232 nucleotides of DNA from Escherichia coli. GTDB lineage: Bacteria; Pseudomonadota; Gammaproteobacteria; Enterobacterales; Enterobacteriaceae. This document shows, piece after piece, positions 1-232 of this stretch. Position 1 is the first letter of the stretch. Each line of letters opens with the position of its first letter. The stretch lies in the NCBI RefSeq assembly GCF_003334405.1, contig NZ_QOWM01000075.1; one strand, given 5' to 3'. The notes under the pieces were generated by a model. It worked only from the letters and a program-made list of their open reading frames with translations, searched no databases and was not told where the DNA came from. The translations under genes were made by a program, and so were the position numbers.

Positions 1-76
1 GTCCCCTTCGTCTAGAGGCCCAGGACACCGCCCTTTCACGGCGGTAACAGGGGTTCGAATCCCCTAGGGGACGCCA
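1..76 (+). tRNA. gltT: tRNA-Glu (anticodon UUC), complete, with genomically encoded 3' CCA
   Basis: The cloverleaf can be folded directly from the sequence. Acceptor stem: 1-7 gtcccct pairs with 66-72 aggggac (7 bp), with discriminator g73 and CCA at 74-76. Anticodon stem: 28-32 ccgcc pairs with 40-44 ggcgg (5 bp), loop 33-39 ctttcac, anticodon TTC at 35-37 (reads GAA/GAG codons). T-arm: 49-53 agggg pairs with 61-65 cccct, with the canonical T-loop ttcgaat at 54-60. A short D-arm lies around 10-26. The 76-nt length and the sequence match my recollection of E. coli tRNA-Glu. The gene symbol is uncertain among the rrn-operon paralogues (gltT/gltU/gltV/gltW), which cannot be told apart from this window. 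Confidence 0.96.
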
Positions 77-208: not shown

Positions 209-232
209 GTGAGTCTCTCAAATTTTCGCAAC

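Follow-up and report, generated by a model that had tools for sequence, protein, structure and literature searches.

Leader–trailer helices around 16S and 23S rRNA are textbook features of ribosomal RNA transcripts. They are essential in Escherichia coli and have been reported in nearly all prokaryotes (PMC10250234, PMC11404451, PMC8782170). For E. coli 23S rRNA, the helix has been given a length of 27 bp (PMC10250234) or of about 30 bp (PMC8782170), and RNase III cuts at −7 in the leader and +8 in the trailer (PMC12817084), i.e., within the 27-bp helix (PMC10250234). The 16S leader carries a short element, boxC, which has been proposed to be delivered to the trailer by an antitermination complex tethered at boxA (PMC10250234; PMC8632103; bioRxiv 10.64898/2026.03.17.712431). 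There, helix structure was of far greater importance than the sequence of boxC itself (PMC10250234). A third described system is StyR-44 (Rfam RF01830), which is npcRNA 44 of Salmonella Typhi. Its discoverers regarded it as part of the ribosomal operon, processed from longer precursors and possibly a metastable intermediate, and were unable to exclude that it is a processing intermediate (PMC2943607).

The segment described here, positions 209–232 of the window (W209–232), lies in the leader of E. coli 23S rRNA, and shares with the known pre-23S leader–trailer helix and RNase III stem the transcript, both flanks and the principle of a leader pairing with a trailer. The known 27-bp helix is to be distinguished from the predicted pairing of W161–182, W214–220 and W225–229 with trailer positions +21 to +55, which is a distal, interrupted extension. 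This extension is not described in PMC10250234 or PMC8782170; the consensus models of Gemler et al. 2024 may contain it (PMC11404451; Zenodo 10.5281/zenodo.11051088). The closest likeness on the 16S side is to boxC, in that both are nearly invariant short leader boxes which lie downstream of boxB and boxA and pair with the trailer. However, the sequences differ (UCUGUGUGGG in the 16S leader, GAGUCUCUCAAA in the 23S leader), and the distance from boxA is fixed at 18–19 nt for the 16S boxC but is variable, about 50–80 nt, for the corresponding box of the 23S leader (here called L2), due to a hairpin of variable length between L2 and the preceding element, L1. The element beside boxA in the 23S leader is L0/L1 and not L2, and the 23S case is known here from sequence and folds. 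With StyR-44 the likeness is direct, as the window scores well above the threshold of the covariance model; the difference is that Rfam files StyR-44 as a gene with a purely local fold, whereas its ends and a competing pairing with the trailer indicate an excised strand.

Our preferred reading, to which we give roughly seven chances in ten, is that W209–232 is the middle section of a composite leader–trailer structure in the full primary transcript, and that the strand released from this structure is StyR-44. Very probably, 12 bases of the segment take part in the conserved pairing by which the leader–trailer structure is extended distally.

Layout of the spacer and position of the segment

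The window, i.e., the whole stretch of DNA analysed, has 232 nt and occurs with 100% identity in E. coli genomes, with a median of seven occurrences per genome. In NZ_CP025916.1, a copy lies in an rrn operon flanked by clpB and kgtP, in which the annotated order is 16S, tRNA-Glu (window 1–76), spacer, 23S and 5S. Window position w (W) is position w+4500 of the locus taken from this genome (L001). W232 is therefore locus base 4732; the annotated start of 23S is 4770, and the gap to mature 23S is 37 nt. The window is the tRNA-Glu-type 16S–23S spacer of E. coli, and W209–232 is ordinary pre-23S leader, as was stated in a preliminary description made from the letters of the window, which had the window ending inside the pre-23S leader, just 5′ of 23S. 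The string quoted there for the segment (cgtgagtctctcaaattttcgcaac) has 25 nt and begins at W208; the coordinates given with it, 209–232, define 24 nt starting with ‘gtgag’, and it is these that hold.

All features of the window discussed here are on the + strand. The tRNA-Glu (UUC) gene of the 16S–23S spacer occupies positions 1–76 (ARAGORN; Rfam tRNA, 60.1 bits; annotation in NZ_CP025916.1). At positions 110–149 there is a boxB-like hairpin of the nut-like antitermination site in the spacer, an inverted repeat with 16-nt arms that are 88% complementary, present in both the minimum free energy (MFE) and the centroid folds; the name boxB is taken from work on rrn nut-like sites (PMC10250234, PMC8632103). 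The spacer boxA, TGCTCTTTAAAAA, is read directly from the sequence at positions 150–162 and is a NusB/NusE site (PMC10250234). Its orthologues in Pantoea, Proteus, Providencia and Serratia are TGCTCTTTAACAA, the constructs for Pantoea showing the last bases only. The match to StyR-44 covers positions 154–232 and continues in the operon to W262 (leader −8). Positions 161–182 are the leader strand of the outer leader–trailer helix, comprising L0 (161–171) and L1 (173–182), and pair with trailer +34 to +55. They are followed by a local hairpin at 187–211, found as an inverted repeat, in folds and as an element of the Rfam consensus, and variable in length across lineages. The L2 box, UCUCUCA, is at 214–220, with trailer +26–32 (UGAGAGA) as predicted partner, and L3, UUCGC, is at 225–229, with +21–25 (GCGGA) as predicted partner once the trailer exists. 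The segment, starting at W209, overlaps neither the boxB-like hairpin nor boxA. The window contains no promoter-like or terminator-like sites. Rfam matches to SNORD24, ceN33, DicF and other families in the window score far below their gathering scores and were dismissed as chance.

Two repeats in the window may be recorded here. Two copies of the heptamer TCTCAAA are present, one in the boxB-like hairpin, in its 5′ arm (W114–120), and one in the conserved L2 box (W216–222), so that a perfect 7-nt complement of W216–222 (TTTGAGA, W139–145) lies in the 3′ arm of the hairpin. A direct repeat, GTTTGTGAGT at W84–93 and GTTCGTGAGT at W205–214, has 90% identity between copies that are 121 nt apart; being short and present in two copies, it may be due to chance.

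Pairing with the 23S trailer in E. coli and in related lineages

The 3′ flank of 23S was taken from the same operon, and the leader, a linker replacing 23S and the trailer were folded together, which is the approach of published surveys of leader–trailer helices (PMC11404451). With a linker in place of 23S, competition from the 23S body and from proteins is left out of the folds. The preliminary description had made its proposal, a role of the segment in the processing stem, depend on complementarity to the 23S 3′ flank. Such complementarity was found: W214–220 are complementary to +26–32 and W225–229 to +21–25.

In the partition function for the linker construct of L001, the long-range pairs of the segment have probabilities of 0.86–1.0 (0.96–0.99 for W225–229:+21–25 and 0.86–1.0 for W214–220:+26–32). 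The first three bases of the segment, GUG at W209–211, pair locally with CAC at W187–189 and close the hairpin 187–211 (probability 0.95–0.98). Thus, of the 24 bases of the segment, 12 are predicted to pair with the trailer, three to close the hairpin and nine to be unpaired. Upstream of the hairpin, W173–182 (GCUGAAAAUU) pair with trailer +34–43 in the MFE fold (probability 0.82–1.0) and W161–171 pair with trailer +45–55, also in the MFE fold.

The same fold recovers the canonical helix, in which 23S +1 to +8 pair with the 3′ end of 23S, and leader −1 to −20 pair with the trailer up to +19. This core has exactly 27 bp (8 bp of H1 and 19 bp), equal to the published length. Its 5′ strand extends from leader −20 to 23S +8 (W250–277) and starts 18 nt past the end of the window, and an internal loop and a small hairpin separate it from the distal extension. 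The 3′ end of the segment is at −38 and the published RNase III cuts are at −7 and +8, i.e., the segment is not in the duplex that is cleaved. In the preliminary description, the segment was suggested to belong to, or to adjoin, the 5′ strand of the stem; this is supported, with the qualification that the segment adjoins the 27-bp helix 18 nt to its 5′ side, and comparison with the cuts places its pairs in the distal extension, outside the cut helix.

The trailer positions to which the leader is predicted to pair, +21 to +55, belong to the 23S–5S spacer and are 3′ of the RNase III cut at +8; we take this region to be the 5′ part of the 9S (pre-5S) precursor. The leader fragment may stay base-paired to 9S after cleavage. 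A local hairpin, AUCAGAACGCAGAAGCGGUCUGAU, lies between 5S and the trailer stretch that pairs with the leader, just 3′ of the latter (L001 7731–7754, trailer +58 to +81), and equivalent trailer-local hairpins are present in most other taxa; it is probably part of the structure of pre-5S (9S).

Operons for comparison were collected by a scan of species-representative genomes with an anchor in the 5′ end of 23S, which gave 105 loci, and 26 distinct operons with both flanks, from Enterobacteriaceae and Erwiniaceae, were aligned with MAFFT (alignment A1). Further operons were added from the PLSDB plasmid collection, which holds many mis-filed chromosomal rrn operons, and from one metagenome scan. 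The taxa added were Salmonella, Kosakonia, Klebsiella pneumoniae, Proteus, Providencia, a Serratia-like operon, Serratia symbiotica, Plesiomonas, Pasteurella and a Providencia-like operon. In the metagenome scan, 10 of the 15 matches were chance matches in unrelated DNA, and the yield was one distinct full operon (L115, of which L122 is a part duplicate), two leader-only contigs and L114, which is without a recognisable 3′ end of 23S. Amphritea (L134) was left out, as the 23S-start pattern was not matched. Counting pairs by alignment column (L2 with its trailer box T2, L0 with T0) was abandoned, because variable spacing and bulges of 1 nt put the trailer boxes of A1 out of register; folds of each sequence with motif anchors were used in place of the column counts.

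Several oddities were met in the databases. A number of PLSDB ‘plasmids’ are rrn fragments or whole chromosomes (L107, L129, L131 and L132; NZ_CP070573.1, NZ_CP087347.1, NZ_OL790812.1 and CP125156.1): a Proteus record of 4.5 kb is essentially one rrn operon, other ‘plasmids’ have 4–5 Mb, and a record of 5.4 kb labelled Acinetobacter baumannii has a Serratia-type spacer, near the S. liquefaciens leader. These records are probably due to mis-assembly, mislabelling or contamination. The exact enterobacterial 23S 5′ sequence was also found in assemblies labelled Pseudomonas, Oxalobacter, Microbispora and Desulfovibrio (L027, L053, L063, L069), probably through mis-binning or contamination of metagenome-assembled genomes and draft assemblies. 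In a scaffold of Pantoea sp. 1.19 (L020), two pattern matches lie 219 nt apart, a duplicated 5′ piece of 23S with N being joined to the spacer; this looks like an artefact of scaffold assembly, and the second copy was excluded.

The same architecture is present in 36 operons, from Enterobacteriaceae to Pasteurellaceae. In spacers that are otherwise variable, the leader islands GCTGAAAAT and GAGTCTCTCAAA recur, as do trailer islands of the GAGAGAC type and ATTTTCAGC; the leader and trailer islands are mutually complementary, and their order fits nested pairing. In 26 independent folds for Enterobacteriaceae and Erwiniaceae, the L0 and L1 boxes are paired with the trailer in every case (26/26 each) and L2 in 25/26. 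In Proteus, Providencia, the Serratia-like operon, Plesiomonas and Pasteurella, there are several leader–trailer segments, from just past boxA to the 23S terminus, which in these distant taxa are interrupted by lineage-specific hairpins. As for the segment itself, W213–219 are paired with the GAGAGAC-type trailer box in 25–31 of 32 distinct operon types, and for W225–229, pairing with the trailer is seen in roughly half of these types, other arrangements being used in Pantoea agglomerans and its close relatives, Buttiauxella, Proteus and Providencia. Elsewhere, L2 has the variant GUCUCUCAA, pairing with variants of UUGAGAGAC. Pasteurella, Plesiomonas and Serratia symbiotica have no L2 box.

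In the last of these, an aphid symbiont (L127), both GAGTCTCTC in the leader and the GAGAGAC box of the trailer have been lost, and the outer and core helices have been kept. This joint loss is suggestive of coupled evolution, from a single case in a decaying genome. Treating it as a replacement of L2:T2 at the level of the helix was dropped, since the fold puts the region in a local hairpin, and it was not counted as covariation.

The hairpin 187–211 (A1 columns 29–83; L003–L104) has a short form of about 25 nt and a long form of about 50–55 nt, the latter with a conserved apical motif like CTCCGTAATAAG. Neither form is confined to one genus, and operons of Enterobacter, Citrobacter and Klebsiella that are closely related differ in this respect. 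This variation in length resembles what we take to be the ‘ribosomal spacer loop’ polymorphism of the older E. coli literature. In the Rfam consensus, the hairpin is a paired element with covarying lower-case columns.

Compensatory changes are seen in the two helices that flank the segment. In the canonical core, 97.7% of cells are paired, four pairs have changed on both sides, and the score was reached by 0/500 shuffles. In the outer helix, the pair at W165 is U–A in 15 operon types and C–G in 8, and the pair at W169 is U–A in 11 and A–U in 10; the two positions vary independently (U165/A169 in Proteus, U165/U169 in E. coli, C165/A169 in Pantoea). Thus, helices supported by compensatory changes lie on both sides of the segment and of the 14 nt of trailer with which it is predicted to pair. 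Within W213–220 there is no covariation among the 32 operon types, because both strands are invariant: there is one pair type at each of W214–219, and W213 forms G–C or G–U. At W224–228, other pair types occur in one Pantoea lineage only (Pantoea sp. IMH).

In a chimera test, the cognate core trailer was combined with a cognate or a foreign distal trailer, and the mean energy was −23.8 kcal/mol for cognate and −17.0 kcal/mol for foreign combinations; on these means, which are the only result of the test used here, 0/20,000 permutations reached the cognate advantage. For single leaders, the cognate trailer was often not ranked first, some trailers binding all leaders well; this is because Pantoea trailers bind every leader strongly and because the cut at 60 nt shortens the Providencia trailer.

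In the composite structure that we prefer, W209–211 would close the hairpin 187–211, and W214–220 and W225–229 would pair with +26–32 and +21–25 of the 23S–5S spacer. This middle section would join the outer helix (W161–182:+34–55), which starts at the last bases of boxA (W161), to the 27-bp helix, and the composite structure would keep the 5′ and 3′ ends of 23S, 2.9 kb apart, together. Upon cleavage by RNase III at −7/+8, the leader strand, from inside boxA to −8, would then be released as the roughly 109-nt StyR-44.

StyR-44 and the local fold of the leader

The match to RF01830 scores 93.4 bits in the window, with truncation at the 3′ side, and 124.9 bits in the operon, where it covers the full 107 model positions (L001 4654–4762, W154–262); the gathering score is 54. 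The segment corresponds to model positions 56–79. At its 3′ side, the match stops at W262, which is leader −8 and directly precedes the published RNase III cut at −7 (PMC12817084); at its 5′ side, it starts within boxA, 7 nt ahead of the first distal pair. StyR-44 does not present itself in the window as an independent small-RNA gene: there is no promoter or terminator, and the ends fall at boxA and at the RNase III cut. The simplest reading of StyR-44 is thus that it is the leader strand excised from the leader–trailer structure.

The Rfam consensus contains a local helix, in which W173–182 (L1) pair with W221–229. Folds of the leader alone, which represent the state during transcription of the 2.9 kb of 23S, give this helix in most Enterobacteriaceae, namely in eight genera (Escherichia, Salmonella, Enterobacter, Citrobacter, Klebsiella, Kosakonia, Buttiauxella and Phytobacter). 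Once the trailer is added, the local helix falls to a probability of about 0, and the best structure that keeps it and lacks the long-range pairs of the segment is 12.7 kcal/mol worse. The two partners of L1 are not discriminated by covariation: in the alignment of 26 operons, pairing amounts to 91.5% for the local helix and 93.5% for the long-range alternative, i.e., both exceed 91%, and neither shows covariation, because L1 is nearly invariant. The local and the long-range structures are best read as successive states of one RNA, between which an exchange may take place in vivo.

This can be taken a step further, to a composite of ~60 bp from the last boxA bases in Enterobacterales, in which the segment acts as a co-transcriptional switch and StyR-44 is the released strand; we regard this fuller scheme as tentative and its truth as doubtful. 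According to it, W221–229 would sequester L1 (W173–182) in the StyR-44 fold during the roughly 30 s in which 23S is transcribed, and UCUCUC (W214–219) would be left largely single-stranded, as a toehold for the GA box of the trailer. The emerging trailer sequence ATTTTCAGC would then displace W221–229 from L1, and the exchange might be assisted by an antitermination complex tethered at the adjacent boxA.

An alternative is that the local fold is the functional one, W221–229 pairing with W173–182 in a leader that never engages the trailer, and that StyR-44 is a structured small RNA, possibly with a function of its own. Rfam models exactly this helix, the leader-only folds yield it, its conservation of pairing is essentially equal to that of the long-range alternative, and StyR-44 is detectable on northern blots and regulated with growth (PMC2943607). 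Nevertheless, we consider this improbable in view of the energetic cost of the local helix once the trailer is there, its lack of covariation, and the position of the StyR-44 3′ end at the RNase III cut, with promoter and terminator absent. Moreover, in leader-only folds the local helix shrinks to 2 bp in most Pantoea operons and in the Serratia-like operon and to 3–4 bp in Proteus and Providencia, yet L1 and its trailer partner are kept. The local fold fits an early or a post-cleavage state of the same RNA, and so complements our preferred reading, the composite leader–trailer structure, more than it competes with it.

Strength of the segment's own pairs and bearing on 23S maturation

As the preliminary description gave a position and not a sequence pattern, chance is at issue only for the proposed complementarity. 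Taken alone, the segment does not bind the trailer beyond chance. The duplex of the 24-mer with the trailer has −15.2 kcal/mol, a value that 15% of shuffles match (p about 0.15), and 14/143 windows of the 23S body bind the 24-mer as well or better; the duplex was therefore dropped as stand-alone evidence. For L2, the longest complement in the trailer is 7.25 nt, compared with a mean of 5.7 nt in dinucleotide shuffles, a difference mostly without significance, since shuffling of the short and GA-rich trailer yields GAGAGA again; the pairing UCUCUCA:UGAGAGA is of low complexity, (UC)n:(GA)n. Thus, the pairs of the segment by themselves are statistically non-significant, and the case rests on context and comparison. 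The context is strong: the distal trailer beyond +19 gains 12–28 kcal/mol over dinucleotide shuffles in 26/26 operons, with z-scores of −3.9 to −10.8, and 0/40 shuffles reach the observed value in every operon. The complementarity of the segment is convincing only in this context, and not for the 24-mer or the L2 box alone.

The same figures bear on the least probable of the readings considered, namely, that the segment is an unpaired linker beside the 27-bp helix, that the GAGUCUCUCAAA box is a site for a protein or a nuclease (e.g., a boxC-like contact of the antitermination complex), and that the GA-rich match is compositional. Such a linker would suit a box that is nearly invariant across four families without covariation, a complement barely longer than in shuffles, chance partners of equal quality in the 23S body, and a published helix of only 27 or about 30 bp (PMC10250234, PMC8782170). 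However, it is made unlikely by a GAGAGAC-type box that is kept in highly variable trailers, always between the core helix and ATTTTCAGC and so in the right topological place for pairing; by covarying helices on either side that hold both strands together; by a same-sense control for L2 that matches over only 3.3 nt, the complement reaching 7.25 nt; and by the analogous invariant boxC of the 16S leader, which does pair with the trailer (PMC10250234).

Our preferred reading remains the composite leader–trailer structure. By computation, the location of the segment, its complementarity, its conservation across families and the covariation of the flanking helices are shown, and we infer that these pairs are also formed by the segment in vivo, with a contribution to 50S biogenesis and processing.

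The basic finding is known biology in the best-studied organism, and what is added is a modest structural refinement: the leader–trailer pairing of E. coli 23S appears to be well longer than the usual 27 bp and to reach the 3′ edge of the spacer boxA. An extension that starts from boxA fits the model of boxA-tethered delivery and would carry that model from 16S to 23S, where the role of proteins is suggested by analogy. Boxes for compensatory mutagenesis can be named, UCUCUCA/UGAGAGA and GCUGAAAAU/AUUUUCAGC; revisiting compensatory mutagenesis for pre-23S was explicitly suggested by Warner et al. For the Rfam ‘sRNA’ StyR-44, a concrete origin is offered, i.e., the excised leader strand. For specialists in ribosome biogenesis, the refinement of note would thus be a longer composite helix that extends to boxA, two alternative states of W221–229, and an origin for StyR-44.
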